From Marsupella aquatica (lineage: Eukaryota > Plantae > Marchantiophyta), in NCBI GenBank assembly GCA_973895155.1, contig OZ316891.1:27255561-27319560 (forward strand): 64,000 nucleotides of DNA, given 5' to 3'. The notes beneath the pieces were generated by a model. The model did no database searches, was not told the DNA's origin, and was given only the letters and a program-made list of their open reading frames with translations. The position numbers were made by a program, and so were the translations under genes. Position 1 is the stretch's first letter. Every line of letters starts with the position of its first letter. This document shows positions 2,600 to 62,959 of the stretch, piece by piece.

Positions 2600-2790
2600 T
2601 GGGATTCAGAATTCTTTCCCAAAGTACATTGTCAATAATTTTACTACTAAGAGCAAAGAAATCTGGTATAGATATTAATTCCACATTCCAAATTGCGTAC
2701 TTGGGGATATGCAAGTTAATTTGCTGACTGGCCAAAGGATTCTGGCAGAGTACAAATTGTGAAAGAAGGGGAGCATACAATGAAGTCTTC
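2600..2790. repeat. Dispersed repeat, also present as two copies at ~14810-15130
   Basis: Shared gagcaaag..tctggtatagat..ttccacattccaaattgc..atatgcaagtt..ggccaaaggattct; minus-strand WNVE.SIP..LRS.IIDN.LWER peptide in both. Confidence 0.75.
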
Positions 2791-31703: not shown

Positions 31704-32952
31704 ACGCTGCAACTTTTCTGTTTTGAGTGTTATTTCTTTTTTACAGGGAGAGCTGGAGGTGGATATCCATGATGATTCAGATGGTCCCAACAAAGTTGAA
31801 TACGATCGTGCTCCTCGCCCATACCGACCTCCAAACCACCCTGACCACATTCAAGATAACAACAGATTTCAAAGGGAGCACACATCATCTACCTTGTAGT
31901 CCCGAGTGGAGTTCTCCCATGGTACAATGGAGCGGCCTATCAACCTCAGTGATTGTGAATCACCAGAGGTCTTGCCAGAACTGACCTTAGGGAAAAGATG
32001 TCTTCCTCCTCATAGCTGCAAGGCTCGGGCTAGACAGATTAAATGAGAATTTTGATCTTAAAGTCCTGAAGTAAATAGAGGGAAAAGTTTGCTTCCACAG
32101 TCGCTTGCAAACGATGTAGACTCAGTAATGAAAAGGTTCAATTCCAGTTGTTATCGAGAGTTGTTTCATACAGCCAAACACTTGTAATTTCTATTTCAAT
32201 AAAGAAGTAAGTTCACTGAACATTCAAATTCGACCTCTTTACTGCATGATTCAAATTGAAGAATTGACATTCTGCTACTTTTGCTAGTTCTCTTTGTCAT
32301 TGGCCACTTGCTTCTGGTAGGACAGTGCTGATGCATTCCAAAACTGAAGGTCGTAGACATTGTTGGAGGGGCCGCCCATCTTTAAGGGGACATTTTGTGC
32401 CCATTCCGACATCCCATCGATATATTTTGCAGGCACATTCAAATCTAAGACTTGGAATGCTCTAACATTGTCAATTGGACTTGGACTCTGGATCACTGTT
32501 GTCTTCATAGACATGGACTGCTTCTGTTTTGTATGAACCCCTTTTCCCTTCTTTTCCTTTTCAGAAATTGTTGTGTTGTCTTGCATCACAATCACCTTCT
32601 GTTTAGTTCTACGAGTTTGTTTTCCTCCTGTGTTGTGATCTCTCGCTACCCTATCCAAAAAGTCTTGAGTGCTTTCCTTCAACACCACGATCTTCTTGAA
32701 TGGCAAAGCATTGAGTAAAGAGTTCTCCTACTCCATGACTTCCTTTTGTTCTCGTGTCTGCCTCTTTGCTAATGGCCGCTTTTGTCCTTTGTAAATATTA
32801 TCAACAATGCTTAGGTGCCTTTTCTGGCTGTTCTCCGGGTCTACTCGCTTCAAGGTCCTTGCCTTTGCACTTTGGAAGGCACGATCTTGCTTCCTTGCAT
32901 TCCGTGCCACGATGTTCTTTACTTCATGCCTCCAATTCTTTAGTTTTGTCAT

Positions 32953-33282
32953 TGTCACACCATTTAGAGTGGTAGTAAAGTATATCGTACTATCTAGGGT
33001 ATAGAGGTTTTGTATGTGTGCTATATGAGCACTTTGTGTTTAGTTTGAGTTGGTGTGAGGGATAGTTATCCCCTTGTGTTGGCTCAAAGGCCTCATCTTT
33101 CAATGTTGAGCCTTTGAGCATGAGCTTGGTGGCTATGGTGTGGCTGACCAGGTTGTGTGCATGTAACGTGGATTCCTTGAAGCACAAGGTGCGTTGGGCT
33201 TGACATATATGTGTGATTGAGTCGGACAGGAACGTTGTTGGATTAGCACTGATCATTATTCAATTTTATCCGTTGAAGATTA
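32953..33282 (+). repeat. Terminal repeat A1 (copy A2 at 42371-42700)
   Basis: First 265 bp differ from A2 at 1 site; last 65 bp at 10 sites. Confidence 0.95.
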
Positions 33283-33869
33283 CATTGAAAGATCACTGCA
33301 AGTTGATTCGAAGTTGTTTCAAAGCTTGCTGTATTGCAGAGTTGATCCATGGTAGCTTGGATTGTTGAGATCTTGCTGGTTGATTTGTGGCGGGATTTGT
33401 GGTAGCTCAAGTCAGATCAGCCGTTGGTAGATTGGAGATTGTGAGCTATTGATTGCTCTGAGAGTACAGCTTGGTGTTGTTTGAAGCTCTCTGATAGTTT
33501 GTTCATTGAAGTCCTCTCTGGAGTTGATTACCGGGATTGACATTTGGAGCTTCTCGAAGCTATGAGGGATTGATCGAAGATCAGAAGGCGTCTCAAGTGG
33601 TAGTTGCTACATTGTGTTTTTGGAGTTTAGTCCTTACCGATTGCATTGCAGCATCGCAAAGGCTATTGCGGATTTGAGATTCGTTGATGGATAGTACACT
33701 TTTACAAAGAAAGTGACAATCAAATGTTGGTGAATTGTGCTGTTGGTGTCACGATGGAGTCCGCGTTGCGACGAGGTGCGGCGACAACCTAGGGCACAAG
33801 GAAAATGACAATATTGTTGAACAATGTTTTGGTCCGAGAATTGCAGCGTGTTTTGTGGCGCGCCTTGTT

Positions 33870-34452
33870 TTGGACTGGGATCATCCGAGTCCAATTGTGG
33901 GTTGTCTCTTGAGAATCATTTTGACTCAAAGTTGGATTTGGATTGGGATCATCCGAGTCCAATCGTGGGTTGTCTCTTGAGACCTCATTTTCACTCAAAG
34001 TCGGATTTGGATTGGGATCATCCGAGTCCAATTGTGGGTTGTCTCTTGAGACCGCATTTTGACTCACAGTTGAATTTGGACTGGGATCATTCCAATCCAA
34101 CTATACATTGGTAACTTCGGACCCCATTTGGACTTGAAGTTGAAGTTGGATTGGGATCATCCCAATCCAACTGTACATTGACAATGTTGGAGACTTGATT
34201 TTGGGCGAAGGTGAATTTGGATTGGGATCATCCCAATCCAACTGAATGTTGGCGTGTCCAGAGACCTCATCTGGACCTTGAAGTGGATTTGGATTGGGAT
34301 CATCCGAGTCCAACTGTGTGTTGGCGTGTCCAGAGACCTCATTTGGACCTTGAAGTGGATTTGGATTAGGATCAACCCAATCCAACTGTATCTTGGCAAC
34401 TTCACCTGTGTAGAGGACGTGAAGGACTTGGATTGGGATCATCCCACTCCAA
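33870..34452. repeat. Array of nine 25-bp palindromes TTGGATTGGGAT-C-ATCCCAATCCAA with 67-72 bp period
   Basis: Copies start at 33870, 33938, 34007, 34076, 34146, 34217, 34289, 34361, 34428; an isolated reversed copy lies at 37604-37628. Confidence 0.92.
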
Positions 34453-35068
34453 CTTGTGGACCGGGCGTCCGGATGACTGTTGAATGGATTTGAATTGGAA
34501 GTTCACCCCGACGTAGCGAAATGTGGTGGGTGTGAAGGGCTCCCTCAGGCTCATCTCGGCGACTCGTGATGAGGGGCGTGAGGGCAGAACAAGAGCTAGA
34601 TCGGAGCGGGCCGCAAGGTAGCTTGCGGGTACGTGAGGAGTAGTTGACAATTGGTTGGTTTGGAGTGCCTAAGTTGGTGCATAACTCCAAGGGGGGAGGT
34701 CACCCATCCCAAAGCTATTCCTCCTACGCGTGCTTAACCATGGAGTTCTTATGGCATGCAGTGTACACACAAGCTTTCACAACTTGTTGTCTAAGTTAAA
34801 GGGCCAGGGGGCTTTATATACTTATTAGTTTGTCTAGAGACCTGTTTTGGGCCAAATCAAAAGCTACTTAGAGGTTTTTGATATTTCTGAATCCATCTAG
34901 ATGCATAGATTGGATCAATTTTGCATGGATTCTTAGCTACAACCTTGGGGCATTGTGAAGCCTATTATGAAGGTGATGGTGATGATTTAGGGCAGATTTG
35001 TTATCACGGATTCTTCGGGTGCTACGGGGCTGTTTGGGGGACAGAGGACCGGTTTCACTCGAAGTGGG

Positions 35069-37400
35069 GTGCCATTTCGACCAACAACATTGATAGCAAT
35101 TGCAAGTGCAACTTCAGATAGTGATTCTAACGAGGACTCTGGGACCAGTTCTCCTTGTCATCGGGTGATTGCACCTTTGTTGTGGGATATGGAAGAGATG
35201 TACGGGGCTACAAAGGGCCCACGACGATACTCTGGTGCAGTTGGCACGATCGATCTGGATGACTTCATCCAGGAGTTTGATGCGTGGTGCGATATGCAGT
35301 CATTGCGTAATGCCACATTGTTTACCCCTTTCATGGTATGGAAGAGATTATTTCAGCATTTGGAGGGGCCACCCATGGATGATTACCATGAGTTTTGGAA
35401 GGCTCATTTGGTCGAGATTGAGGCATGGAGGCAGCATTGGTCGCCTAATTATGTGTCCATCACGTATGGCACTAGAGCAGCTGCCCAACCCATTGCTACA
35501 GCTGTTGCTTCTTCTAGTAGCACTAGCCAGAGTGGCACACCATCTACCAGTACCACTCCATCAACATCCATCGCTACTCCTACCGGTGTGATTGTGACAG
35601 GGGTTGGAGTTGCGCCAACATTTAACCCCGTGGTGGAGTTCTTTGAAGTATTAAAGCAAAACTATCAGGGTGTGAGGACTGATAAGTTGAAGGGTCTCCA
35701 GGATTTTTAGCGCAAGACTGGAGAGAGTCTACGTGAGGCATACACTCGTATGCGTAGATTAATCACTGTCACCAAGGGAGTGACAGAGGCTCAGGCAGTC
35801 CAATTTTGGTATGCAATTCTGGATAGAGAATTGCAACGTAGAGTGAGAGATGTCACTTTGCTTAGGGATGCAAATCCCACATTGGCAGTTGTTTTTACAC
35901 TTTCTGAGCGAAATATGGTGAATGAGAAGGTGGTGACTTTTGGATTGCCAAGGAAGCACCAAAGGCTGCATCTACATCTACACCACAGCCTACTGCACGG
36001 AAGAGCCAAAGGGAGAAGCCTATTGCACGAGAGTCTACCAGTCAGAGACTTGTGCCTTCCTATGCAGGACAGTAGTTAAGATGTTGGACCTGTGGTGGGG
36101 ATCATGCACAGCGGTGCCTAATCATAGAGGGTCAAGAGGAGCCTCAGCACCTGATCAGCGGCAGTGTGATCATTGTGGAGCTCCTGGACACACCAAGGAT
36201 AGGTGTTTTTTACTCCATCTTGAGTTACAGAGAGGAGGACAACGCACACATGATCAGGGAAGAGGAGGTAGAGGTGGTGGTCGTGGCCGAGGTATGCCAC
36301 ATGTAGCAAGGCAGGGAGGTGATACTGCTCCTGCTGTGACCACAGATCCTAAGGATGCTAAGATTGCTCAATTGGAGCAACAACTAGCTGCTAGTTCTCA
36401 AGTCAGACTTGCTTCTAGGATGGGGCTTCCACATCTTATGGAGCTGATGGGGACCTTGTCACCATGGGATTCATGTGTGGCACTGCACATATTGATGCAT
36501 CAGCAGCTTTGACACGTGGAGCAGCCAAAGCTTTTGAGCCCCAAGGAGCAGTAGTGGAGCTAGATCCATAGAGGGGGGATGCATGTCGGCAGACAAAGCT
36601 TCCTCAATCTTTTACATTGTTAGAGACAGTTCAGACTGCCTCTATGAACCTGGTTCGAACAAACCCTAGTGTGGGTAAGTTGGCAGAATCAGGTAGTGAT
36701 GCAGCAGGGATGATTGGTACCTTGTTGGGGGCGGCTACTACCATAGTGTGCACCCCATTATTTTCAGCGATAGACATGTTGAACTTGGAAGTTGGTCCTG
36801 CATAAGTGTTCAAATTGGCAGCTACACTCTGTGAGGACACTCCAGTTGTTGCTACCCATGCAGAAGCAACTTGCAGTGTTGAAGCAGTGAAGACCATGCC
36901 ACCTACTGCTACTAGTGAGACCTGGCATGTAGCAGCAGCAAGGTTGGTGGATTTACCAGCACGCCCTGCATTTGAGAGGACTAGGTTTAAACCTAGTGTT
37001 GTGTCATTGGATAATCGGAGTGGTATCTTTCGATTAGTTGGGCCTTCTGGAATGGTGTACCAGCCAGAGAGAGTGTTACTGGATACTGGTGCTCAGCCCT
37101 TGATGTTGGGAAAGTCTGCCATATGTGGATTGGGATTGCGTCTAGAGGATTTGGAGGATTGTCCCTTTCCCATTTAGACTTCATTGGGGGGACCTACACC
37201 TACACCTACATAGCACATCACCAGGAGACCAATTGATTTGAGGATTCAAGAAGGTCATGCGACAGATAGCTCACAAATACAAGCGCGAGCTATTTTGACT
37301 AAGGCAGAGTCATATGATGTGTTAGTGGAATATACAGTGCTCTACCCCATGGGATTTATTCTTGATTTTTGGGATGAATCAGTGTCATATAGACCTGATT
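35069..37400 (+). pseudogene. Gag-like region with CCHC knuckle plus aspartic protease
   Basis: RRYSG..DLDDFIQEFDAWC; ESLREAYTRMRRLI; CDHCGAPGHTKDRC; RVLLDTGAQPLMLG; YDVLV; several stops and frameshifts. Confidence 0.8.
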
Positions 37401-37816
37401 GGCAGTCAGGAGATGCTCGATTGAGCAGGTTGCCAGTGCAATTTAGTGGACCTGTGGGAGGCCCTAAATCCATACTATTGTCTTTGGCAGCATTCAGTGG
37501 TGTGATGACTGGACCTGATGATTTGATTGAGGGTAGTGCGCATGCAGCAGATGTTCCATCAGTGGAGGAGTCACATGAGGAGCAGATGGTGCGAAGGAGC
37601 AACCTGGATTGGGATGATCCCAATCCAACTAGTGTTGTGCCACCAGTATGGGGTACTGCACAGGCCTTGCCGCAGAGGGCAGCACAATTGGTACATGATG
37701 CATGGCGTCATGCTTTTACACCACAATCCGGAGTAGAGCAGTCTCCTACAAGTGGGCCAGTGACTCTTTCACTATTCGATACCACTCCTATTGCATGGCA
37801 GTATCTACCAGAGGGT

Positions 37817-38770
37817 ATTTGTTTGTTGGATCTATTTGGTGGGATTAGCACTGGATTGGCTGCTATTCTTGAGGCAGGAATTCCTGTGCGTCGCTACTTG
37901 TATGTGGAGACAGATGAGACAGCACGGAGAGTCTCATTGCACCATGTGGCTATGTTGGTGGATTATTATCCATAGTTGTTGCCAGTGGATACTATTCATG
38001 GCTATCAACATGCACTGCCTGCTGATATTTCACTGTTGGGGGCGGATCATTTGGATCGCGTTGGCCCCATTGATTTGGTGATTGCTGGTTGGCCATGTCA
38101 AGGCCAATCTAGAGCTGGAGTTGGACATGGACTTCATGATCCACGCTCTGCATTGTTTTGGGAGATGTTACGGGTATTGCGTCATCTCCAGTTACATCAA
38201 ACACATTCCCCTGTCTACATTTTGGAAAGTGTGCCATTATTGGGTGATGAGCGTCATCGACTTGTTGCTAGTGTTCATCAGGTCAGATCTTGGATTGGGC
38301 CTGTTGTGTTATTGGATGCTGCACATGTGGGTTCTCGTGCACATCGTCCACGCTTGTGGTGGACTAATTTGTTACCTTGTGAAGTGTTGAAGCGAGCATT
38401 TGATAGCATTCCTCGCTCAGCATCCTTGGTGGTGGATGATATTTTGGATCCAGGGCGTTGTGCACAACAAGTGACCCAGTCTGACAGGCCTCCATTGGCA
38501 GTGGTCAATGTAGTTGGTCGCCCGCGTTGTGCATTACCCACTTGTGTGAGTCATTCTGCTTCATATGCATTTAGAGCAGGTGGGCCTGGACTTGTGTGGG
38601 ATACAGCGCTACAGCAGTTAGTGGACCCTATTGCTGATGAAAGAGAGCGTGCTATGGGATTTTTGATAGGCACTACTGTAGTTGCCTCAGTGTCAGAGAG
38701 TTCACGCCGCCAAGTCCTTGGTCAAGCCATGGATTTGAATTGCTTGACTTGGATTATCAGCTTGGGATTA
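37817..38770 (+). pseudogene. Retroelement-encoded C5 cytosine DNA methyltransferase domain
   Basis: Motif I LLDLFGGISTG, II YVETD, IV IAGWPCQGQSRAG, RSALF, VI ILESV, VIII RAHRPRLWW, IX ERERAMGF, X RRQVLGQAM; a single in-frame TAG at 37973-37975. Confidence 0.92.
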
Positions 38771-39002
38771 GCTGAACAGTTGCGGATGCGCTCTGCTGGT
38801 GTTACTGATCGTCCATTAGTGAGCTTGCAGTCCACTGAGACAGTGATGACCACAATTGGGGGCGGGCAGACAGTCCATGGACCTATGGCAGGATTGGGCC
38901 AAGGCTGGACAGATTGTTGAGCAGGAAGGGACTACTCAATCTACTGCTAAATAGCAATCATCGGTTATCTCTTCTACCCTAAAAAAAGATATTAGGGATC
39001 TA

Positions 39003-40571
39003 GTGGAGAGTTGGGAGCCACAGATTGGTCCTAAGTTGACAGGGGAGGAGAGACATCGCATGCATCGATTCCTGAAGAGTTATTGGAATTGTTTTGCATT
39101 CAGCATGAAGGATTTGGGGACATTGAAGGGCCCTGGTATTCAGATTGAATTGGCTAGTGATGCACCAATCTTTCGTAGACCATACCGCTATATTGACATG
39201 GAGAGAGCTCTGATTCAGAGTAGAACTCAGGATTTGTTGGAGGCTGGTTTGGTGGAGAAATCATATAGGGAGTATGCATCTGCCATAGTGATGCCAGCCA
39301 AGAAGGATGTGCATGGTAATTACACGGATAAGCGCATGTGTGGTGATTACTGACCTATTAATCGTCAGACAAAATATGATCGATATGCCATGCCCACACC
39401 TGAGGAGATCTTTGATGTAGTGGGGCATGCAAAGGTTTTTAGTTCATTGGATCTGAGGGCAGGGTACCATCAGCTTCCAATCAAACATTCTAACAGGTCC
39501 AAGACAGCATTATGGGGAATTGATTCTTATGGCAAGGATCGTTTATATCAGTGGTTGTTCTTACCATTTGGGTTGAAGAATGCACCAGCTGAGTTCCAAA
39601 GAGTCATGGATCGAATTCTTGCAAGTTTGTATTTTGTTAGATGTTATATTGATGATATTTTGGTTTATTCTTCTACTATGGAAGAACATCAACGACACTT
39701 GCAGATTGTGTTTGAGAGGTTGAGGGAACATGGATTGAAGCTCCATCCTGGCAAGTGTAAGTTCTTTCAAGAACAGATTGAGTATTTGGGCCACACTATA
39801 TACCCAGGGGGATTGGGTGTACAACAGACTAAAGTGGAGGCTATTACACAGATTCCTCGTCCTACTGATGTGAGTAGAGTTCATGCATTTTTGGGATTGG
39901 CGAGCTACTACAAGAGGTACGTTAAAGGATTTAGCCAGCTTGCTAAACCTTTAACCATACTCACTAAGTTGGATCAGGAATGGATTTGGGGTGATGATCA
40001 GGAGCATGCCTTTCAGGAGTTGAAAGAAAGATTGGCATCATCCCCTATTTTGAGAAGACCCATTTTAGGGAGAATATTTCAGCTACACACTGATTGGAGT
40101 GGAGTAGGACTTGGAGCAGTGCTAACTCAAAAAGATGATGAAGGGCATGAGTTTGTTGTGGCATATGCCAGTAGATCAAACAATTTAGCAGAGGCTAAGT
40201 ATAGCTCTTATGAGGGAGAGTGTTTGGCAACAGTGTGGGCTGTGGCACACTTCCGTTGTTACTTGTTTGGTAATCCTTTCACTTTGATCACTGATCATCA
40301 GCCTCTCAAGTGGTTAATGGAGTCTGACAAGCTTACTGGAAAGCTTGCAAGATGGGCATTGTTGTTGCAAGAATATGATTTCCAGGTTGTACATAGACCT
40401 GGAAAGGTGAACTTGGATGCAGATGGGTTGAGCCGCAATCCATGTACCAGTCAGCAGGATGAGACTGGAGCCAGATGGCATGGTGAGCCAGATAAGGAGA
40501 TTTGCCAGGATGGCATGCATCTACCTTCCTTTGTTGGGTTCCAGCATGCAGTGGATCTGTGGATGTTGTAG
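39003..40571 (+). pseudogene. Ty3/Gypsy reverse transcriptase + RNase H
   Basis: RMCGDY*, LDLRAGYHQ, PFGLKNAP, YIDDILVYS, YLGH, TDWS..LGAVL, ECLA, TDHQPL, ADGLSR. Confidence 0.95.
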
Positions 40572-40750
40572 ATGATGAGTCTTCAGATGTGGATGTTGGT
40601 GAGGTAACTTCTGGACAACAAGATATTCACAATGATGTGAGAATGTTGGAATATCTATGCAGTGGTTCTATTGTTGGCAATGTTGATGCCAAGGAACGTG
40701 ACAGGGTTCTACAGAGAGCCAAGAGGTTTTGATGGGAAGGAAACCATCTT

Positions 40751-42064
40751 TTGAGAGTACTATGTGATGGTAAGGTGTTGGTGGTACCAAAACCATCACA
40801 ACGAGCACATTTGGTGCGACATGCGCACGAGGAGTTAGGGCACTTTGGTGTCAAGCGCAATTATAGCTTGCTGCAGACACAGTATTGGTGGCGTGGTATG
40901 CACACTGATGTTCAGCAATTGATAGCTAAGTGTGTGGTTTGTGATCGAGTGCGAGCATCATTTAATACTCCCACTCCCCAATTGCATCCGTTGCCAATCA
41001 TGGGTTTGGGATATCGATGGAGTTTGGACTTTGCTAGTCCATTGCCTCTTACCCAACGTCATAATCGGTATGTTTTGGTTATGGTGGAGCACTTCTCCAA
41101 GTGGATTGAACTAGTGGCATTGCTAGACAAAGCTAGTGGAGGAGTGGCTACCACATTTTTGGATTGAGTACTCAATCACTTTGAAGCACCAGCTGAGGTG
41201 TTGACTGATCAGGGCATAGAATTCCGTGGAGATTTTGAGAGTTTGTATGAGCAAGCTCTGATTGACCATCGTACTACTTCTCGCGATCATCTTGAGGCAG
41301 ATGGATTGGCAGAGAGAGTTGTACAAACTATGAAGAGAGGACTGCGCAAGTATGGCTTGCAGGTTGGTCATTTGGGAGACTGAGATCTCCAACTACCTTG
41401 GTTAGCTATGGGCTACCGTTTCAGTCGGCAAACATCACTTGCATCCTTGTCACCCTATTTCTTGCTCTATGGTAGAGAGCCAGATTTGCCAACGGCTATT
41501 CATCGTGATGTTGCAACTATTGTGGATTTGGATGATCCAGATATTTGGGTAAAGGTTTGTTTAGAGAGGGCACAAGTTTTTTAGAGAGTCATGCCCATGG
41601 CCTTTGACAACCTTGCTATTGCCCATCATCGTGATACTTTGTGGTATGCTACTATTCGTGGAGGAGGTTATCGCACGAGGATTAGGAGATTCCATCCTGG
41701 CGATTATGTCTATTTGCAGCAGACAGCACCAACGACGCTTGATGTGACCGCAGGGCGGACAATCTTGCGTGTGCGTGAAGTGTTGCCTTCTGGAGTCCTT
41801 ATATTGGAAGGGCGTGATGGTATGGTTTGGAAGGATCACGTGCGTAATTGTGCGCCATGTCACCTTCCAAACATTGATGGCATTGTGGATCCAAGCTTGG
41901 CACATGTTTGTGCTAGCTTGAAGTGTATGTTGTGTGGGTCTGCTCAGGAAGCAGCTACTATGTTGATTTGTGATAGGTGTTCTAGAGGATGGCACTTGTT
42001 GTGTTTGACACCACCCTTGCACATGATTCCTAGCGGATCATGGTTTTGTCCTCAATGTCGGTGA
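40751..42064 (+). pseudogene. DDE integrase with HHCC finger and C-terminal PHD finger
   Basis: HEELGHFG..CVVC; WSLDF; TDQGIEF; DGLAERVVQTMK; then CMLC..ICDRCSRGWHLLCLTPPL..GSWFCPQC (C4HC3). Confidence 0.93.
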
Positions 42065-42232
42065 TGCCGACCAGTTATCATTTGTGTTCTTGTGGAAGAT
42101 ATAGATTGCAGGTAGGTGATCGATGGGGCTCACTTGCACCCGGCCTCCTGATCTTTGCACCTAAAAAAGTGTATATTAACCTTGTAGAACTCATGGCTAG
42201 TTAGAGACCTCACTCCCAGCTAGGGGGGCGAT

Positions 42233-42837
42233 TGTGGGTTTTGGGCATGTGTGGACATTGGTTCCATTTGTACTCCATTCTCTTATGTTTGTGTTATTGG
42301 ATTGTGACTATGCTTGGATATGTGTAACAAGGGATGTATGTTGTGTAGCGATGTGTATGTGCACGACAGCTGTCATACCATTTAGAGTGGTAGTAAAGTA
42401 TATCGTACTATCTAGGGTATAGAGGTTTTGTATGTGTGCTATATGAGCACTTTGTGTTTAGTTTGAGTTGGTGTGAGGGATAGTTATCCCCTTGTGTTGG
42501 CTCAAAGGCCTCATCTTTCAATGTTGAGCCTTTGAGCATGAGCTTGGTGGCTATGGTGTGGCTGACCAGGTTGTGTGCATGTAACGTGGATTCCTTGAAG
42601 CACAAGGTGCGTTGGGCTTGACATATATGTGTGATCGAGTCGGATGGGAATGTTGTTGGATTAGCACTGATCGTTGTTTGATTTCATCCATTGAAGATTA
42701 TTGTGGGTTTGGGGCATGTGTGGACATTGGTTCCATTTGTACTCCATTCTCTTATGTTTGTGTTATTGGATTGTGACTATGCTTGGATATGTGTGACAAG
42801 CGATGTATGTTGTGTAGCGATGTGTATGCGCACAACA
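42233..42837 (+). repeat. 3' block B1-gc-A2-t-B2
   Basis: 136-bp B (tgtgggttt...gcac(g/a)aca) occurs twice, with ~5 differences, flanking A2. Confidence 0.95.
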
Positions 42838-44129
42838 TCATTGCAATGCTACGAACATTCAGGTCCCCATCACAAATCAGAAGTGTGTCTCCCACTACTT
42901 CTCTGAAATCATCGTCCATGAAAGTTGCCACAACATCTGATCTGTCACCCTATTTTTGTGTTGCGACGTCATCTCCTCCATCAGTATTTTGTCCATGGGG
43001 AGAGTGATGTTGAAACATGGAGGCATTTCCACGTCCTCAAAAAATTTATCGAAGGCAGGTCTTTCGAATGTGCAAGTAGGTGCCACCATGATGCCAAATC
43101 GTGTGCCAAATCTTTGCAGAATGTCAATTTATGTCATCCCCTTCATACTCAGAATCTTGAACACCTAGTGTTTACAAGTGTTCCCCTGGATGGAGCTATC
43201 ACAAGTGCAAACACAGTCCTCACTGTCGTAGTTCTCCAGTATGTGATTGTCTGTCTTCGATGGCGTCTAGGACTTCACCATTGTTGTTGCACTCTCAGTG
43301 AAGAAAGTCACATCACCATCTGGGATTGTCCTGGCTCTAAGAATAGCCGACCACACATAGTTCTCAATGTTCTTGTTTCTCACCCTGCCTTGCCACTTCA
43401 TACACGACAAGCACCAGAAAAATGTTCTAGCTCATTCACAAGCTGTGTCACTAGCCACACCACCTTCCGTCCTAGCTTGAAAGGCTTCTCCGTCCTCAAA
43501 TGCAACTTAAGAGTAGCATGCCACCGCTCAACTGCTCCATTGGTGTCCTGGTTGCCATGTTTGAACTTCCTGAAATTTCCACCCACCTCTCCACTCTATG
43601 GTGCCACTCTTTCTCATAGTATGCAACAAAGTCCTTCTGCGTGCAAATCCACCTTCTCATGAAGTTATGGGACATGTTCACAGCATCTGCAAAACAAATA
43701 AACAAAATAAGTGCACAATTCACAAGTGTGAAAAAACCCTGCCACCAAACATCACCATTAAACACCTTGGCAGTGCACAGCCCAGGAAAGAAATGTCAAC
43801 CCCAAGTGTACCTGTTGGAAGTGCACCATGATGTTGCCCAACTCCTTATTCACCTCGGCCCTTGAAATTGGGTCCAGAATTTTCTTCAAGATGTTTTTGT
43901 ATTGGGCACGTCAAACATGCCATAAACACAATACAATAGGGACTCCAGGCCATAGTGATCTGCCAAAGGATGCAAACCCATACACTCATGAGGTATAAAC
44001 ACTTCAAATTAGAGGGTTGGGGACAATTTGGCTATGTTAAGATTGGAGGGAGGGTAAGGGGTGCTAAAATAGGCTACCAAGGGAGGGACAACACATATTG
44101 GAACTGACTTCCGATTCCTCATAATGGGC

Positions 44130-44656: not shown

Positions 44657-47600
44657 TGTTGAGCATAGACGACATTCGCAACGGCAAGCCCATGAACCAT
44701 CCAACGCACAATAGTCAAACAGAGAGATACGTGGTTCACCTCCACATGAGGCTACGTCCACGGGAACACACAAGAGCTTTACTGCACTCTAGGCCGACCG
44801 GCCATACCAAGCATCCACAGCACAAACTCTCCCTATCTCTCAACTAGCTCCGTAACAATGAGCCTAAGTTTCACCAGGGTCTGGCATCAGCCCTGGCTAT
44901 ATGCACAACAGCACTACCGCTAACATTAGTTAAGCCCTAACCCAAGTTAGCCTAACTATAGTTAGCTCATGAGTCACAAGACTAGAGCAATTTCTAACAA
45001 ACTCCTCCTTGACTCTTGTCTTGGGGACTGGACTAAATGCTACCATATGGAATCCTCAGCGGGAAATTCTAGACAATCATCAAACCAGGTCTCCCCCTAA
45101 AAACCACAAGGGTTAACTAAGGGTTAACTAGAACTAAGCCGTAGCCAAACAGGAATGAGTAATCCATATACATATAGTCACACATTGCTAAATAACTCTA
45201 CTTGCACTACAACTGCAAAACCTGCAAAGTAGCACGGTGTCTTGAGAAACTTTCCAAAGGAATCACTTTGGTAAAGGCATCAGCGAGATTGAGCTTTCCA
45301 TCAATCTTGACTAGCTCAAAAGTTTTATCAGACATTGCTTGCCTGATAAAATGGTACCTGATATCAATGTGCTTCACCCTGCTATCCATCACCTGGTTAG
45401 CAGCCAGGTGAAGAGCACTCTGACTATCATAGTTTAGAGTCATTGCGCCATGCTCTAAACCCATCTCCGTGATCAACTTATCCAACCAAATTGCTTCCTT
45501 TGCTACTTCTGCTACTGCAACATACTCTGCTTCTGTAGTAGACTGAGATATACACTTCTGCAAGGTAGATTTCCAACTGATACATCCTCCTCCAAGAGTT
45601 AAAAAAACCCAGTTGTAGACCTCCTTGTATCTAGATAGCCTCCATAGTCAGAATCTACATAGCCAACTAACATTCTATTTTATCTATTATCAATAGTAAT
45701 CCATAGTCCTGTGTTCCCTTCACATACTTGAGAATCCATTTCACAGTTTCCCAATGTATCTTCCCTGGATTTGACATGAATCAGCTAACCTTGTCCATCG
45801 CTAGGGCCAAGTCAGGCCTAGTACAAGTCATCAAATACATCAGACTGCCTACTACCTTCTCATAAGGAATCTTAGCCATCAGACCTTTCTCCACAGCATC
45901 CGTAGGAGAGAAAGCCGATGATAACTTGAAATGTGAAGCTAAAGGAATACTCACTGGCTTACAATTTTCCATGTTGGATCGTGCAAGTATTTTCCTTGGA
46001 TATTGGCCTTGACTCATGCACAACTATCCAGTATCAGAGTTCCTAAAAATCTCCATCCCTAAGATCCTCTTGGCCTTACCAAGATCCTTCATCCTGAATT
46101 CAACACTGAATTTTGCCTTGAGATTGTCAACCTTAGATTGATCTTTAGCCACAATCAGCATGTCATCCACATAGATCACTAGAATGATGAAACCAAACAC
46201 ATCATTCTTGACTGATTTTGTATACACACAAGGATCATACACCATTCTTGTAAAACCTTGAGCAAACATGAAATCATCAAACTGCTTGTTCCACTGTCTG
46301 GGAGACTGCTTCAATCCATACAAAGATTTGAGCAATCTGCAAACTAAGTTCTCTTGGCCCTTCTTCATAAAGCCTAGTGGTTGTCTCATGAAGATCATCT
46401 CTTCTAAGTTGCCATAGAGAAAAGCAGTAACAACATCCATCTGATTCATCACCAGACAAAAAACACAACAAGTTGACACAAGATCCGAATTGTGAAATAC
46501 TTAGCCACCGGTGAAAAGACCTCATTGTAATCCACTCCTTTCTCCTGAGTAAATCCCTTGGCAATAAGCCTTGCCTTGTAGATCTTATCTCCACCCTCTG
46601 AAGGATTGTCCTTAAACTTGTAAATCCACTTGCTGTCCACCACTTGCTGACCTCTTGGAAGCTCCACCAGCTCCCATGTCTTGTTGTCACTCAAAGATTG
46701 CAGCTCCCTCTACATTGCTGCATTCCACTCATGCTTCTGCTCTGAAGCACAAGCCTCATTGTATGAAGAAGGCTCTCCTTCTTCCAAGATCAAAGCCATA
46801 TCATCTTCATCAGGTGCAATGTCAATATCGTCTAGCTTAGATGAGTCTGCCCATTGACCATACCTGGTAGGAGCTCTAGTAGAGCGACTGGAAGTTCTTC
46901 TAGTAGATGATTCAAACTGATCTGCTGCTGTTGCTGGCTGAATTTGTGGTACCCTAGCAACAATCTGCTCCTCTTGTTCCATCACAAGAACCAGCTCCAA
47001 GCCTGGAGCTTCTCCATCTCTCCTGTCATGAACTACATCATGACTAATCTCCCCCTCAACCCGGTCCAGGATGGGAGATTTCCCCTTGTCAGTATGGGAG
47101 TCCTGAGAACTCTCCCCCTTCTTTGATGATCTGGACTCATTAAAGGACACATCTCTACTGACAATTAACTTACAAGTTACTGGATCCCATAACCTATAAC
47201 CCTTCACCCTTTCTGATAGCCAAGGAAAATGCACTTCTTTGACTTGGACTCCAGCTTGGATCGAAGCTGGGAAGGTGTAAGCACATAAGCATCACATCCA
47301 AAATCCTCAAATGTGAGTAATCTGCTGGACGCCCGTACCTCATTTCAAATGGCATCTTGAATCCAATAGAACTAGATGGAGAAAAATTTACCAAATAAGC
47401 TGTAGTGTTGACAACTTCAACCCAAAACTCATGTGGTAAGCATGATTGACTCAACATACTTCTCAAGCGGTCCAATAGTGTTGGTTGAGTCTCTCAAAAA
47501 CACCATTCTGCTAAGGAGTATAACTTGTTGTGAGATGATTGGTAATCCCCTGCTCCTTACAATACGTTCCAAATTCCCTGAAACTGTATTCATCACTGTT

Positions 47601-50600
47601 ATCCGATCGAAGATATCTCACCTTATTACCAGATTGATTCTCAACTTGGGCTTTCCACTCCTTAAAAGTGGCAAAAACATCAGACTTATTGTGTAGAAAG
47701 TATATCCACACATACCTTGAGTAATCGTCTATGAATGTGACATAGTATAGCCGTCCAGAATGTGAGGGAGTAGGGGCTGGACCCCACACATCACTATGTA
47801 CATACTCAAGTATCTCCTTGCTGGTGTGAGTTCCAACTCCGAAGGGTTTCCTATGCTGCTTCCCAAGCACACAATGCTCACAAAATTCCAACTTACAAGA
47901 TTGCAAATTAGAAAGTAATCATTTTTTCTGAAGAATAACCAAACCTTTTTCACTCATGTGGCCCAAACTGAAGTGCCACAGCCGGGCCGTCTCCTCATGA
48001 GATAAGGTTACATTGGTTTCATCATAGACTACACTGCCCTCCAAAACGTATAGATTGCTATGTCTCTTTCCCTTCAATACAACTTTAGTACCAATTGAAA
48101 CCTGAAGGACACCATTAGCAGAACTCCACTGATGACCATTTGCTTCTAAAACTCTAAGTGAAATGAGATTTTTCATCATCTGGGAATATGTATCACATTC
48201 CTCAATGTTCTCACAACACCATCAAACATCTAAAATCTAACAGATCCAAGTCCAACAACTTGACATGGGATTCCATTTCCCATCAACACTGAACCATTGG
48301 AATCCATGTAAGAACTGAACAATTCTCTCCTAGAGCAAATGTGAAAAGTACATGCACTATCTAGAATCCAGTCATCACTACTTGGATTTGACACTACGTT
48401 GAGAGTATAACCTTGACATCACAATATGTCATCATCATCGAGCAAATCTACCTCATGTGAGTTGGATGCCACGTTAGCAGATGCAGTAGGGTTCTTTACT
48501 CGAAAATCCCTTTTCATGTGGCCAGGCTTGCCACAATTCCAACATGCAAGAGGCTTCCTCTCTTGCAATTTCCCTCTGGATTTAGATCTTCCCCGTGATG
48601 TAGATCTAAACCTAATCTGCCCATTCGTGCATTGAACTACTCTTCCCCTATTCACATTGAGCGCAGTGCCAGAAGAAGATGCTGCCTGTGATTGACCCAG
48701 CTTCTTCTGAGCATCATCAGACAGTAATGAGCTCACCACCTCATTATACGAAATGGACTTCAGATCTCTACACAAGAGCACCTGTTTCAAGCCCTAATAA
48801 GACAGTGGTAAGGAGCTTAGCAGAAGCAAGGCCTTATCCTCATCTTCAACTTCTTTTCCCAGGTTTGACAGATCCACCGCTAGACTGTCAAATTCATCCA
48901 GGTGATCCTGCAGCTTGCTCCCTTCCTTGAGCCTAAGGCTCATCAAGAGAGACTTGAGCCTGAGGCTCATCAAGAGAGACTTCTTGTTAAGCCGGTCTGA
49001 CGCATCTTCCCGATAGTACTTCTCTCTTAGAGCCTTGAACAGTGACGCGCAATCTGCATAATCATCCAGCTGCTTGATGATGTGCAGCTTGAGATATAGC
49101 ATCACCACATTGACAGCAATCACCTGCTCCTATCTCCATTGCTTCTGTGAGATCTCCTCTTCTCCATCATATTGCTCTCGCAAAGAGAGTAGATGAGCTA
49201 AGCCCATGGCCCGAAGGACACCCTTCACTTGCTTCTCCCATAGCAAGTAATCAGTACGACCATCGTACTTCTCCACCTCAAACTTCACTCCTCCAAAACT
49301 AGCCATCTCCCTCTTCTTTCCCACTACCGACAACTCTGGTAGTAGTACAACTTCCTCCATTGCACGCCGCACCGGTGATCGTACCGGTGATACTAGTTCC
49401 TCCTCAAATGGTAGGAGCTCCTCCTCAGACTCTCCGTCTAACCGTTGCGATCCTGAAGCTCCACCAATGCCAATTCTTCCAATATCCTCCGAGTCACTCA
49501 TATGAAACAATCACAAAAAAATGTCTTTTTTTGAAATTTCTTGTAAAACTCAAAACTCAACACCGCCATGTAGCCACGAAGCTAGGAGTCCAATACTGAA
49601 AGCCGAAATCAAAATCAAAATTCAACGCAAAAGTTATTCAAATTTTGGTCGGGTGGGTAAAACCTTGGGAAACTCCCCCGTTTTGATCACCTCGGAGAAT
49701 AACTAAAATACCAAGTACAACCCATCGTCGGAATCGTGATGTGATTGGTGCGCCGCGTTGCTAACTCCAGTGGCAACATCCTCGCCGAAAAAGAACCAAA
49801 AAAATTACCATTTGGCGAACAGAATCTTCGTCGGACGGCCAAAAAACAGCTCTCTGTTTTTTGGGAATATTCCCGCACAGTCCATCAGGTCCCAAGGGGG
49901 TCGTTCCCCTTGTCAGAGCGGTTAGAACGAAGGTGACTGGTCCCGGGACAGCCAAAGCATCAAACCGGGGAAAAAACAAAAAATGGGCCCTTAAAAGGGG
50001 GGTTTAAGCCCCTTAAACATAAATACGCCTTAAAAAATGCGCATTCGCGTCACGCGACGCGAGGCGGACGAGACAGGGTACAAGGATACAGGAGGACGAA
50101 TACAAATAAAAGGGTCAGGCCCGGGCCAAATACGCGTGGGGGAGCAGGCCGGCAAGGGCGAGGGCAGGTGATTGGCCGCCAGCGGCAGGCACAGCCGCTT
50201 TGTGGCAGCAGGCAGCACGATGGCGAGGGCGTATACGGGCTCGCTTAGGGTCCGGGGCGCGGGGCCTTGCGGGCTCGCAAAGGAAGTATGGGTTGGAGGG
50301 CCAGCCGTCGCAAGGGCGTAAACGGTGGTCGCGGGGGGGGGGGCGCGGGGAGGTAGTGCCGGGTGGCAGCAATCGCACCGGCCGGCACTACGCAAGGGCC
50401 TTGTAATACGGGGTGCAAGGAGGGGAGGAAAATGAATACACGGGGGGAGGAGTTAGGGCCCGAGGTACGAGGTGTGTGTATACACCTCGTATACACACAC
50501 AGGGACCAAACCCCCTATAAAATGCAAAAAAATGCCCCTAGGATAAATGAATGAAAAAACTCACTTGAAAAGCCGTTGATTTAAGTGAGAAAAGTGAACA

Positions 50601-51584
50601 CCGTCAACGGGAAATGTTGCCGAATTGCACCGACATAGTCTGCAACTCCAGCAGAGTAAAAAACTTCCGCCGCAACGCCTTCACTCCGCGTCAAGTGCCA
50701 ATCCCGGGCTCAAAATGACCGCCTCACCGCGATCAACCCGTTGAGCCGTAGCACTTTGTGTTTCTTCCACCGAGTATGACGTCACAAAGAGAAACCCGGT
50801 TCAGATGAGAACAAGCTCCATAGCTTGTGAAAAAACCTGAACGCCTCCTTCACTCGTCACGTCGCACTTGGTAACAACTCGGTAGCAATCCAGCTACCAA
50901 AACGACCAGCTCGCATCAACCTTCAACTTGAGCTATAATGTGCGATCCCTCCCGCACCGCATAGCTCACACCGTTGAAAAATGCAAACTCTGGTCTCTTC
51001 CCCAAAAAGCTGTCGAACACGAATAAAACCTGAACGATGCAAATTTCAATTCCTCCGCACTACGGATACCGATCAGCGAGTTCTAACCACCGTTAGAACG
51101 CCCTCTCACTAACCTATCTGCTCAACCACACACATTCAAGTTTTATGCGACGAAACTCCAAATGTACCATCGACAATGAACGCTGAAAAAAACCTGTCAC
51201 GAAAAAACCTTGTCACCTCCCAGGCATGCTCTAATACCACTTGTTGAGCATAGACAACATTCGTAACGACAAGCCCATGAACCATCCAACGCACTATAGT
51301 CGAACAAAGAGATACGTGGTTCACCTCCACATGAGGCTACGTCCACAGGAACACACAAGAGCTTTACTGCACTCTAGGCCGACCAGCCATACCAAGCATC
51401 CACAACACAAGCTCTCCCTATCTCTCAACTAGCTCCATAACAATGAGCCTAAGTTCCACTAGGGTCTGGCATCAGCCCTGGCTATATGCACAACAGCACT
51501 ATCGCTAACATTAGTTAAGCCCTAACCCAAGTTAGCCTAACTGTAGTTAGCTCATGAGTCACAAGACTAGAGCAATATCTAACA
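44657..51584 (-). mobile_element. Full-length decayed Ty1/Copia LTR retrotransposon
   Basis: 343-bp LTRs 44657-44999 and 51242-51584 (~16 differences); TSD TGGAA both sides; PBS tggtattagagc (tRNA-iMet type) 51228-51239; PPT at 45000-45010; gag CWNCGKPGH, PR WILDS, LWH..LGH, INT VHSDVWGP, RT YVDDML, RH STTEAEY/KHIDIRYHF in Copia order. Confidence 0.97.
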
Positions 51585-54324: not shown

Positions 54325-55389
54325 CTAAATTCTATCCGTAATCTGAAGTACTAAGTCCTGCCTACTCTTTACTCTTGTGTTTATTCTACAGAATTTTGAT
54401 GTTTGTCTGTGAACTTCGCTGACTACCTTCACAAACTCCCTAAAATTTGTGGCGAATAGCCCATGCGCAGCTCCTAGGCCTTTTGTGCATTGATTAGTTT
54501 CATGCTCAGTGAAGTCTTCCTTACGAGACATCCACAATATGATCTCTATGTGCCGAGGAGTAAGTTCTGAAGTTGTCAGTTGAAGAACATCATATTTGCG
54601 CACTGGCCACGATGCAAAAAGCGAATTAGATTCCTCAAACCCCTGCAGTTGAGTGTATATATGTTGATATTTTTTCCGGTCTTCAGCTAAATTCAGACTG
54701 GACCATTTTGGAGTGTTTCGCCACAAATACACACGCACATCTCTTGCCAAGGCCAACTCTTGCAACACTGGTTGAAGTTTGTTGCTTATAAACGTATCTG
54801 CAAGAAAACCATTCTTATTGCCGTTGAAGCAATCACAAAACAACATCGAGTATTTGGGGTTAAAGAAACTTCTATGAGGTAAATCATCAAGAAGGATGGT
54901 GTTGTTGTCATTATAAGGTGCGCTTGTCCGATCTCCATTTAAAATGAGGTCATCCCAAATATTTTTCAGTAATTTCACAAAGCAATTTTTCCCTTTGTTT
55001 CTTCCAGCCCCATAAAATATCCCAGTTGACAAGGCTTCCACTTCAGTTCTCACAAAGACAAATCGATGCTTCTTGTTGGGAAACACTTTCTCCAAAATCT
55101 CATGCACATTATGATATACGACATAGGCCCATATCCCCACATCAAATGTCTGAAGACACCATTCAACGAAGCGCCGCATTCCCGGTCTTACATAGATGAT
55201 TCTATTCTTTAGAAACAATGTCTCCCCGTTTTCAGTATTTATATCCCTAAGAGACTTTGCTCGCACTCCCAATATTTGCACAATATGTAAGACGACATTC
55301 ATGTCAAGTACGAGCAGTTTACGAGGAACGGTGTTTTGTATAATAGTTGCCATATCGTATGTTACAATATCTGCAGAGTGACAAAACAA
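54325..55389 (-). CDS. FCP1/NIF-like HAD phosphatase domain protein
   Basis: KLLVLDMNVVL, YVRPGMRRFVEWC..FDVGIW, VKLLKNIW, NTILLDDLPHRSFFNP. Confidence 0.8.
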   Translation of the reverse strand: MFCHSADIVTYDMATIIQNTVPRKLLVLDMNVVLHIVQILGVRAKSLRDINTENGETLFLKNRIIYVRPGMRRFVEWCLQTFDVGIWAYVVYHNVHEILEKVFPNKKHRFVFVRTEVEALSTGIFYGAGRNKGKNCFVKLLKNIWDDLILNGDRTSAPYNDNNTILLDDLPHRSFFNPKYSMLFCDCFNGNKNGFLADTFISNKLQPVLQELALARDVRVYLWRNTPKWSSLNLAEDRKKYQHIYTQLQGFEESNSLFASWPVRKYDVLQLTTSELTPRHIEIILWMSRKEDFTEHETNQCTKGLGAAHGLFATNFREFVKVVSEVHRQTSKFCRINTRVKSRQDLVLQITDRI

Positions 55390-55501
55390 TAAATGAACAT
55401 CAATATCGTAAAGTCAATGCAAGAGCATAACATCAATTACGACGCATTGCAGCGTATGGAAAATCTGACGATAACCTATTCCACACAAGAATCACGTAGA
55501 T

Positions 55502-55770
55502 CTAACTCAAATGGTGACGATAAAGGCAGCTTAGAACAATATTCCTCCTTTCAGCATCCATGTCCTCGGCTTTGAAATCAATAGGCTTCTCCCTACTCCG
55601 GTAATCGGCAAATTTCATGACAAACACTCCGCAGTTGTAGTCATCGGTTTGAAGAGGGATGTCTTTACAATAGTTTCTCGGCCATGACAAAAGCATTTAG
55701 TTCCTTATGAGTTCTGACATGGCTTCATCGTCTAGATATCTTGCTAGGTTCTCAAGAACTTCAAACACGA
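55502..55770 (-). pseudogene. Ulp1/C48 SUMO-protease C-terminal fragment
   Basis: LENLARYL..DIPLQTDDYNCGVFVMKFA (oxyanion Gln and catalytic Cys). Confidence 0.75.
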
Positions 55771-56112
55771 TGACCGACCAAACGAGAAGTGTGACGACCA
55801 AACGAGAAGTGTGTTTTGATTTTGGCAAAAAATGGCAAAAAATATCTTAAATTGATATCAGACACACAAATTCTTGGATGAATGCAAAATTGGATCCAAC
55901 ATCGGATTCCAAATCGAGATACTTTTTGACAAAAAATGGCAAATCATCGAAATCTTTGATTTTAGAACAATTTATCCTGAAACAACTTTTCAAACAGAAA
56001 ACCCATAAAACAATGATTTTCAAGTCCTATTTCCGCACGCTAAATCAATTTCCCAGGAAAACCGTCAATACCACAAATCTCCATTTGATGAACAAATCAT
56101 TCCAACCAAAAT

Positions 56113-57891
56113 GGGATACGCTGTATCCCGTTTCAGATTCATCCCACTAAAATTAAACAAAAACAAGCTAAGTTGATCATTTGGCGCCTTAAGTTACCAT
56201 ACCGATTAAACTAGATTTGAATATTTACCAAAAGTAAAACTACGTACTGCAGAAAATTTACTAGCGACCACAGTCGACCAACGCAGTCAGTTAAGTTAAC
56301 CCAAGCAGATGGCTAGATATATTGTAGACCGTTTATTTCCCAACCACTGACCTCCATCTAAGAAATTAGAGGTATGAATACCAATAGGGATCCATGGATC
56401 CCGTTTTATTTCCCAAGTCCCAAAACAACTCAGCCAAAAGTCGGGGTGAATACGAAATGGGATCCACGGATCCCATTTGGTATTCAACCTTCCAAATTTG
56501 CCCTTGTCAAACACCTACGTCGAAAAATCAGCGTTTGAATGCCAATCGGGATCCATGGATCCCAAAATCCGATCCAACTCAAGAAACAAATAATTTTGGA
56601 ATACTCTTTTCTCTGAAAGATCAATTTCATTCTTGTTTAGAATGTGTACGGACCAATGAGTGAACGCCACGTGGACATCTTCCCAAAAACTATATAAGAA
56701 CAAGCTCGCATGTGATTCGATCTTCATTTTTTACGACTCATTTAGGTTCCTGAATAGTGAGTCTCTATTTTTTGTAGATTGTAGTCACTGGAACGTTCTC
56801 TTCCCCATAGGAATCCTTAGTCCTATAGAACCTTGATACTATCGATGGTGTCTTCAGGCGATGAGTCGATTTATAGTTCTGATGCATCTTCGCCAGATGT
56901 TGTTCGCAAATTCATTCCATCTTGTTTGATGAAGGAGCTTCCAGTCTCACATAGAGTTTTGCCAGAGATGTCATTTTCATCAGATTCAGAGAGTTCAGGG
57001 TCTGATTCCGAGTCTGGGAGAAGTGTTGTTAGAGCTCCAACATCTTATTATGTTTCTCCAAGCAAACCACTTAAACGGCGTTTGCTTGGGAGAAAGTCCA
57101 CTATCATACCCTTAGGTCAGACTAGTTCACCACGAACCCCACCAGATGCACCCAAACGGAGGCCTCAATTTCTAATGCCAAGAACGATGTTACCATGTAG
57201 GCCCGCCAAGAGATCTCCTTTGGTTTTTCCAATGTCGCATTCTCCTGGAGTCTAGATAGCTTTGTCCAGTGTGCAATCACAATTTGAGCAAATGAGAAGT
57301 CCGACGGTGCTAGAAGTGCCGGCCGCACGAAGAATGCCCAGAGGGATCCCTACTCAAAGTTTGCGGAATGGAGAGCGTGAATTGCCAATTTTGTCTCCTT
57401 CGCTACCAAATTCCATTAGTGGAATACCAAGTGGGATCCGTGGATCCCATTTGGTATTCCCTCCTAAAATTTTACCAAATGGCGAGCCGGAATTGCAAAG
57501 TGGGCAACCTTCGCCTGCTCTTTCGGGGGGAGGAATGCAAAAGAGGATCCGTGGATCCCACTTGGTATCCCCCCTGGAATTTTACCAAACGGCGAGCCCG
57601 AAGTGCAAAGCGGACAACCTTTGCCTGCTGATTCGAGGAGAGGAATTTGGAACGGGATCCGTGGATCCCACTTGGTATCCCCTCCTGGAATTTTACCAAA
57701 TGTCGAGCCTGAGTTGCGAAACGGACAAACTTTGTTAGCTGCTTTGGGCGGAGGAATGAGAAAGGGGATCCATAAATCGCATTTTGTTTTACACAACAAA
57801 AAATTGTCAAGCGCTGCCGTAGAACCGCAAGTGGGGCAGCTCTCACTTCGAAGTCCGAGTGGATGAATACAAGTCGGGATCCATGGATCCC
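56113..57891. repeat. Dispersed and tandem palindromes GGGATCC-NN-GGATCCC, some extended to ~40-bp hairpins; ~110-bp tandem unit at 57420-57800
   Basis: Cores at 56113 (variant), 56387, 56459, 56548, 57433, 57544, 57654, 57765 (degenerate), 57876; a further variant at 62908. Confidence 0.9.
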
Positions 57892-57908
57892 ATTCCGTAT
57901 TCCCATCG

Positions 57909-62874: not shown

Positions 62875-62959
62875 GAATCAGCCAAAAACGAGGGTTGAAT
62901 CCCAAATGGGATACGCGTATCCCATTCGGTATTCAACCTCTGGAATGCACGTTTGAACA

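Follow-up and report, generated by a model that had tools for sequence, protein, structure and literature searches.

Layout of the element

The window, i.e., the whole stretch of 64,000 nucleotides that was analyzed, contains on its plus strand a Ty3/Gypsy element of 9.9 kb (32953-42837). A leader is followed by gag, protease, reverse transcriptase (RT), RNase H and integrase in the order of Ty3/Gypsy elements, with a C5 DNA methyltransferase (DNMT) domain between protease and RT and a PHD finger at the C terminus. The features are listed below.

32949-32952, plus strand: left target-site duplication TCAT, identical to the four bases at 42838-42841
32953-33282, plus strand: repeat A1, the left element end, starting with TGTCA
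33848-34458, plus strand: tandem repeats of about 69 nt in the 5' leader (repeat analysis)
35189-36400, plus strand: gag, interrupted by stops and frame changes, with remnants of zinc knuckles
36980-37429, plus strand: aspartic protease (LLDTG) with two decay stops, at 37175 and 37211
37796-38785, plus strand: DNMT3-like C5 methyltransferase domain (predicted), between protease and RT
37826-37855, plus strand: C5 motif I (motif reading)
37973-37975, plus strand: decay TAG inside the DNMT domain, the sole stop in the domain frame
38081-38104, plus strand: C5 motif IV with PCQ (motif reading)
38096-38098, plus strand: catalytic Cys, inside the PCQ of motif IV
38216-38236, plus strand: C5 motif VI, reading ESV, with the lesion at 38228-38230
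38336-38368, plus strand: C5 motif VIII (motif reading)
38705-38734, plus strand: C5 motif X (motif reading)
38890-38902, plus strand: frame break of the window copy, near the end of ORF1
38952-38960, plus strand: conserved in-frame stop with context TAG CAA TCA, a likely read-through site
39012-39855, plus strand: RT (YIDD) with a decay stop at 39351
39987-40376, plus strand: RNase H (domain search)
40790-41890, plus strand: integrase (H2C2 finger, DDE core), containing decay stops
41924-42064, plus strand: PHD finger (E 2.1e-10) and final stop of ORF2
42123-42147, plus strand: 3' untranslated motif common to four distant families
42219-42228, plus strand: polypurine-tract-like GCTAGGGGGG, immediately ahead of B1
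42231-42368, plus strand: repeat B1, ending with CACGACA
42369-42370, plus strand: GC spacer, the center of the palindromic B1/A2 junction GACA-GC-TGTC
42371-42700, plus strand: repeat A2
42700-42837, plus strand: repeat B2, ending with ACA, the right element end
42838-42841, plus strand: right target-site duplication TCAT

The window copy is dead. Compared with open relatives, it carries 12 decay stops, seven in ORF1 and five in ORF2, and about five frame changes. Hence, the statement in an earlier note on this DNA that a single TAG is the only break in the frame applies to the methyltransferase domain but not to the element. That note had missed the PHD finger, the split organization of the terminal repeats and the conserved stop. 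Among the relatives, P0210 shows a weak match to Retrotrans_gag (E 0.006), and ORF1 of locus L053 matches Asp_protease_2 with an E of 2e-4, which is below the cut-off.

The leader repeats are built on a hairpin-like core, which recurs once in the linker between protease and DNMT (37606-37626). The read depth of the leader is far below that of the coding region in four public runs, and leaders may thus differ among subfamilies. The 3' untranslated motif, GATGGGGC...GCACCC.GCC, is located upstream of the purine tract, is kept in the window, L076, L050, and L053, and may act as a signal for priming or packaging. The CpG ratio of the element is 0.41, that of its flanks 0.59 and 0.53, and that of the intact ORFs of L050 and L053 0.52-0.75, a depletion that cannot separate self-methylation from methylation by the host.

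The methyltransferase domain

As reported in the earlier note, the domain lies between protease and RT, in frame with the protease-side ORF, and carries a nearly complete set of C5-methyltransferase motifs including a PCQ with the catalytic Cys. Motifs I, II, IV, VI, VIII, IX, and X follow each other in one frame and in canonical order, and the match to PF00145 (E 2.8e-9) passes the curated cut-off of Pfam. The motifs that define this class are found throughout the family, with a stop and the ESV in the window copy. The window domain scored 338.5 bits with a profile built from six algal relatives alone. Of 200 shuffles of its residues, 108 obtained any score, and the highest was 2.4 bits.

Several comparisons agree on the class of the enzyme. 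DNMT3A came out on top of a single-sequence search of the PDB (E 1e-12), and in a profile search it was found at E 6e-19, vs. 8e-9 for a DRM-type entry and 3e-5 for HaeIII. An AlphaFold2 model of the domain (mean pLDDT 73.9, pTM 0.81), in which residues 226-264 are poorly predicted, had DNMT3A as its best Foldseek match (E 1.7e-16), and DNMT3A/B/C rank first in the PDB searches by sequence and by fold alike. Since its motif order is unrearranged, the domain is not a DRM. On these grounds, it is classified as a DNMT3-like, unrearranged C5 methyltransferase, closer to DNMT3 than to DRM. A search of viral contigs for relatives returned just six weak phage-type methyltransferases (E 2e-6 or weaker).

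Sibling copies were taken from reads and metagenomes. A metagenome scan yielded 133 confirmed stretches carrying the domain, the best 80 of which were analyzed; 60 domains contained in one segment were aligned, the other 20 loci being split or partial. The catalytic Cys is present in 60/60 of these domains, and motif VI has its Glu in 59/60 and its Asn in 60/60. Thus, the ESV mentioned in the earlier note is correctly read in the window copy but is not a trait of the family; from the alignment, it is considered a lesion private to this copy.

The stop between ORF1 and ORF2

Among the best 80 of the 133 metagenome stretches, 57 loci hold both the DNMT and the start of RT, and in 55 of them an in-frame stop is located 17-24 codons ahead of RT. 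In the remaining two, L026 and L080, a Tyr codon takes its place. The stop is kept across families that are <80% identical in DNA, although 51 of the 55 lie at codon -17 and come nearly all from one family, so that the number of independent cases is about six. The codon following the stop is CAR in 54/55 loci, whereas only 6/228 decay stops within the DNMT domain are followed by CAR. In the four public read runs, no variants of at least 5% are listed at 38952-38960.

The sequence CARYYA after a stop is a read-through context, known from tobacco mosaic virus and SIRE1. The contexts found are TAG CAA TCA in the window and L050, TAG CAG TTA in L053 and L055, and TAG CAA CCA in L008. The commonest context, CAA CCC (47 of the 55 stops), is that of the peat-moss-type family and comes near to CARYYA but lacks its final A, and L070 has TAG TAG CCA. 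A strict match to CARYYA is restricted to five loci and the window.

L053 is naturally open and consists of 1369 codons, one TAG, and 1047 codons, with ORF1 and ORF2 abutting in one frame. Other open relatives stop soon after the DNMT, i.e., Mp4g09160 at 1278 and P0210 at 1329 amino acids. According to these reading frames, the domain is not placed inside pol, as the earlier note had assumed, but closes the gag-protease ORF, and the conserved stop separates it from RT, RNase H, and integrase. This stop is likely leaky, and its read-through would yield RT-RNase H-integrase-PHD. As the tail of the gag-protease ORF ahead of the stop, the enzyme would therefore be made at the capsid level. In L050, which is otherwise open, gag and protease lie in overlapping frames (504-2606 and 2477-4660), which could reflect a programmed frameshift or a single lesion.

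Split terminal repeats and element ends

The element starts with TGTCA and ends with ACA, and its ends are arranged as A1-coding-purine tract-B1-GC-A2-B2. A1 and A2 are identical at 319/330 positions (11 differences), and B1 and B2 at 133/138 (five differences). The split A-coding-B-A-B layout is complete in the window, L048, and L076 and partial in L004, L020, and L038. In the nine loci with both ends scored, from which L052 was omitted because of a damaged end, the 4-bp target duplication is exact in seven and has one mismatch in two. The TG...CA ends and the length of the duplication are those of Ty3/Gypsy elements (4-6 bp). A pair of complete and identical LTRs, the first followed by a tRNA primer site, is not found, however: the repeats are split, and no TGG is present within 60 nt past A1 in the window. 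The combination of split repeats, a DDE integrase and target duplications does not fit the standard model of LTR replication. Programs that detect LTR elements by a pair of full LTRs would likely overlook or misannotate elements of this kind.

The sequence of the B1/A2 junction, CACGACA-GY-TGTCA, is nearly a palindrome and contains a CpG, which lies four bases inward from the end. It is common to the window, L050, and L053, the DNMTs of the latter two being about 50% identical in protein to that of the window. Judged by its sequence, the junction looks as if two integrase ends had been joined via the pair of bases removed by integrases during trimming. We also considered an intermediate that is circular and could be cut at one or the other of two equivalent junctions. 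This model predicts permuted copies and was rejected; a permuted B-GC-A start was found at 0/23 recovered 5' ends, the left end always being an A that adjoins the coding region. Fifteen loci end straight after B1 (A-coding-B only), several of them with intact duplications. Recombination between B1 and B2, cutting at both junctions and assembly collapse are indistinguishable here as the origin of these loci.

Relatives and selection

The order gag-protease-DNMT-RT-RNase H-integrase-PHD recurs through the 80 loci, as far as each contig reaches. The domain is thus no one-off capture, which was one of the doubts raised in the earlier note. In four public runs, the read depth of the DNMT is of the same order as that of RT and far above that of the flanks, which fits a multi-copy family but does not represent a copy number; runs with a small share were left out. 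The 61 sequences in the domain alignment form 53 groups at 99% DNA identity and only seven at 80%, and most of them, therefore, belong to one family. In the tree, this dominant metagenome family groups with the Sphagnum protein.

When proteins were searched with the domain, 139 of about the same length and another 57 of greater length were obtained. Among them are Mp4g09160 (71% identical to the window DNMT) and Mp8g17980 (69%) of Marchantia polymorpha and proteins of M. paleacea, Calypogeia fissa (70%), Riccia sorocarpa, Sphagnum troendelagicum, and S. fallax. The earlier note did not know such elements as established in land plants. A literature search, with Repbase and most subscription journals outside its reach, indeed found no paper on land-plant copies, but the proteins of Marchantia, Calypogeia, Riccia, and Sphagnum do carry the domain. 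Of note here are the land-plant range, the predicted capsid-level placement and the unusual ends; for the kind of element, a precedent exists since 2018.

Neutral evolution, the second doubt, is contradicted by the substitution rates. In the stop-free, unsaturated pair L053/L055 (dS 0.25), the dN/dS of the DNMT is 0.14, and between families it is 0.13-0.29, with most dS values near saturation. Decayed copies within one family show 0.45-0.88 for the DNMT and 0.31-0.51 for RT, as expected of decay after insertion. These ratios indicate that the domain is under purifying selection, but it evolves faster than RT (dN between L050 and L053 0.17 vs. 0.07). The DNMT and RT trees, partly quick trees without an outgroup, recover the same main groups, and the window DNMT falls in a clade with liverwort and moss copies with a support of 100. 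A bryophyte, or else another seed-free land plant, is the most likely host. The peat-moss-type loci L001 and L004 are 73% identical to Marchantia copies in the DNMT and 73-88% in RT, which is close for a moss-liverwort pair and possibly due to horizontal transfer.

A profile search extended the family to 460 clusters (50% identity, E below 1e-30); domain orders were read in the best 150 of these, and names were looked up for 30 proteins. Within these 150, the order protease-DNMT was found in Klebsormidium nitens (GAQ93235.1, partial), Mesostigma, and Closterium. The K. nitens domain is 36% identical to that of the window and forms a long branch at an unresolved fork of an unrooted quick tree. 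In Closterium and some unnamed elements (P0246, P0363, P0329, P0224, and P0362), the predicted proteins run from protease through DNMT to RT with no intervening stop; those of Closterium are gene models, in which splicing could be hidden. Another 30 of the 150 clusters have the order RT-RNase H-DNMT-integrase-PHD. This position of the DNMT3-like domain, between RNase H and integrase, occurs in relatives from the chlorophytes Scenedesmus and Hariotina and, in part, Cymbomonas (P0283, P0189, P0315, and unnamed proteins). Within one PHD-bearing lineage, the domain has changed its position.

Comparison with known systems

The kinship to DNMT-carrying retroelements of charophyte algae to which the earlier note pointed is borne out by KnitGypsy-Dnmt3 of Klebsormidium nitens (de Mendoza 2018, PMC5890265). 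As described in the text of that paper, this element, like that of the window, is a Gypsy element with an unrearranged Dnmt3-like domain after the protease, split (DIRS-like) repeats, and purifying selection. In KnitGypsy-Dnmt3, however, the DNMT is described as sharing one ORF with RT and RNase H, whereas in the window family, in the same frame, a stop intervenes in nearly all loci. The hosts differ as well, i.e., Klebsormidium vs. liverworts and mosses. The text does not mention a PHD finger, a 4-bp duplication or a junction palindrome for KnitGypsy-Dnmt3, its Figure 4c having been compared by legend only, and the word Marchantia is absent from the supplements examined. SymbioDIRS-Dnmt3 of Symbiodinium shares the Dnmt3-type domain and the A-coding-B-A-B repeats with the window element but uses a tyrosine recombinase (PMC5890265); its protease, DDE integrase and target duplications set the window element apart. 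Identity with DIRS/PAT elements was rejected: rve and Integrase_H2C2 matches are present, and no recombinase match was found.

EpiLTRs of Cymbomonas and Euglena (bioRxiv 10.64898/2026.05.21.726589) resemble the window element in being LTR elements that encode both a C5 methyltransferase and a chromatin reader. As far as described in the preprint, they combine a DNMT4-sister enzyme with DAM and a chromodomain, whereas a DNMT3-like enzyme and a PHD finger are found here. A DAM or chromodomain match was found neither in the window element nor in L053, and this identity was also rejected. Phygy of Physcomitrium is another non-chromovirus Ty3/Gypsy lineage of a bryophyte with 4-bp duplications (Neumann et al., 2019, PMC6317226). 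Its NCGN targets, tRNA-Trp primer site and lack of an extra domain do not fit the window element, and a target duplication of the NCGN type was found in 0/10 scored. Neither methyltransferase nor PHD is listed in the text of that Ty3/Gypsy survey. Troyka, considered as a candidate group with split LTRs, proved unrelated (PMC12440569); its CG...CG ends and 3-bp duplications do not match the TG...CA ends and 4 bp found here.

In non-flowering plants, the catalytic domain of host DNMT3 is likewise of the unrearranged DNMT3 type (Yaari et al., 2019, PMC6453930); the window domain differs in being intronless, multi-copy, and located within a retroelement ORF. The DAM-retrotransposon preprint of 2026 and Sarre 2025 (PMC12344493) name only "streptophytes" in their available text, and their supplementary trees might include bryophyte copies. 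A PHD finger has been described in a Gypsy element of Chlamydomonas (10.1101/2022.06.16.496473).

Possible roles of the methyltransferase

The hypothesis that a retroelement DNMT methylates the element's own cDNA was already proposed for the earlier elements (PMC5890265), and the question has been open since 2018, partly because dinoflagellates and Klebsormidium are hard to manipulate. With some reservation, we favor such a role here. ORF1 would encode Gag, protease, and the DNMT3-like methyltransferase, and RT, RNase H, integrase, and PHD would be made solely by reading through the conserved stop. Particles would take up an excess of the methyltransferase, the protease would release it and, being catalytically active in intact copies, it would methylate cytosines, probably in CG, in newly made cDNA. 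The copy would then insert pre-marked, and the gain may be that a new insertion, already methylated, looks like host heterochromatin or starts quiet. This proposal builds on the domain order, the DNMT3-like sequence and fold, the conserved stop, the purifying selection and the integrase-type ends. Consistent with it, SymbioDIRS-Dnmt3 domains methylate CG in yeast (PMC5890265). Against it count the failure of the isolated KnitGypsy-Dnmt3 domain to methylate in yeast, a result called inconclusive by its authors (PMC5890265), the CAA CCC context, the exceptions L070, L026, and L080, and the faster evolution of the DNMT than of RT; the CpG ratios favor neither self-methylation nor host methylation. 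Since M. polymorpha has annotated relatives with an open ORF1, Mp4g09160 and Mp8g17980, and met1 mutants exist, the question of self-methylation becomes directly testable. In Mpmet mutants, many transposons are de-repressed (10.1101/363937).

More tentatively, this proposal can be extended to a scenario that we regard as conceivable but doubtful. A Gypsy lineage present throughout green plants would have kept a DNMT3 since before land plants, and the land-plant branch would have put it under capsid-level expression by a leaky stop. Many enzymes per particle would then methylate the cDNA prior to insertion, including the CpG at the ends, and the integrase would cut the palindromic junction of the split repeats instead of ordinary LTR ends. 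If this is true, model plants such as Marchantia would harbor elements that set the marks for their own silencing.

Alternatively, an active enzyme might act in trans or at the insertion site, where the Gag-level product would methylate host chromatin or resident copies and the PHD finger would pick the chromatin. As the DNMT lies in the abundant ORF1, most of its molecules would not be fused to RT, and the PHD finger is tied to the family in all lineages seen. The conserved stop predicts an abundant, non-limiting enzyme, which raises the chance that the host methylome is touched, and such spill-over has been raised before (PMC5890265). In the chlorophyte relatives, however, the position of the domain between RNase H and integrase ties it to the cDNA machinery. 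Furthermore, Gag fusion proteins are expected to be drawn into particles, and action in trans, therefore, seems unlikely.

Still less probable is a direct part in replication, in which the methyltransferase would mark the CpG or CHG site of the palindromic junction between B and A and thereby decide which junction or end the integrase uses. The conservation of this junction and its CpG in families with only about half of the DNMT residues in common would fit, as would the constant left end without permuted copies, but the order of strand synthesis can give the same asymmetry, and we know of no DNMT3-type enzyme that acts as a site-specific regulator of integrase.

It is improbable that ORF2 is made by splicing, reinitiation or an internal promoter and that the stop merely terminates ORF1. 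Ogre elements do join GAG-PROT to RT-RH-INT via splicing (PMC6317226), but their spacers and those of Bianca measure 172-274 bp, whereas here ORF1 runs into ORF2 in the same frame, just one codon separating the two, and the sequence that follows the stop is under constraint.

That the domain is retained for a function other than catalysis, or for one directed at RNA, e.g., to bind or shield nucleic acid within the particle, appears even more improbable. Such a function would agree with the inactivity of the Klebsormidium relative in yeast (PMC5890265) and with the poorly predicted segment of the model, but not with the conservation, across green-plant lineages, of the catalytic Cys, the ENV and the residues of motif VIII. 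Finally, that a host DNMT3 gene was captured only once, or neutrally, is suggested by a dead copy that has lost one residue of motif VI but is refuted by the sibling loci, the 460 clusters and dN/dS values far below 1; the DNMT read depth resembling that of RT and the main groups shared by the DNMT and RT trees also speak against it.

Other features in the window

On the minus strand at 62320-63979, a broken ORF contains a GGNH motif, which we take to be ParB-like. Past a stop and a frame change, it is followed by an N6/N4 methyltransferase-like ORF, for which the match to PF01555 (E 1.3e-5) is just under the cut-off. A search found no longer homologue, and the locus is possibly a second mobile methyltransferase. 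A Copia remnant with RVT_2, rve, and a zinc knuckle lies on the minus strand at 44657-51541, between direct repeats of 300 nt. At 54325-60279, a NIF-phosphatase-like ORF on the minus strand and DUF7869 ORFs on the plus strand are located around repeats with the palindrome GGGATCCGTGGATCCC; together, these features probably constitute a DNA transposon.
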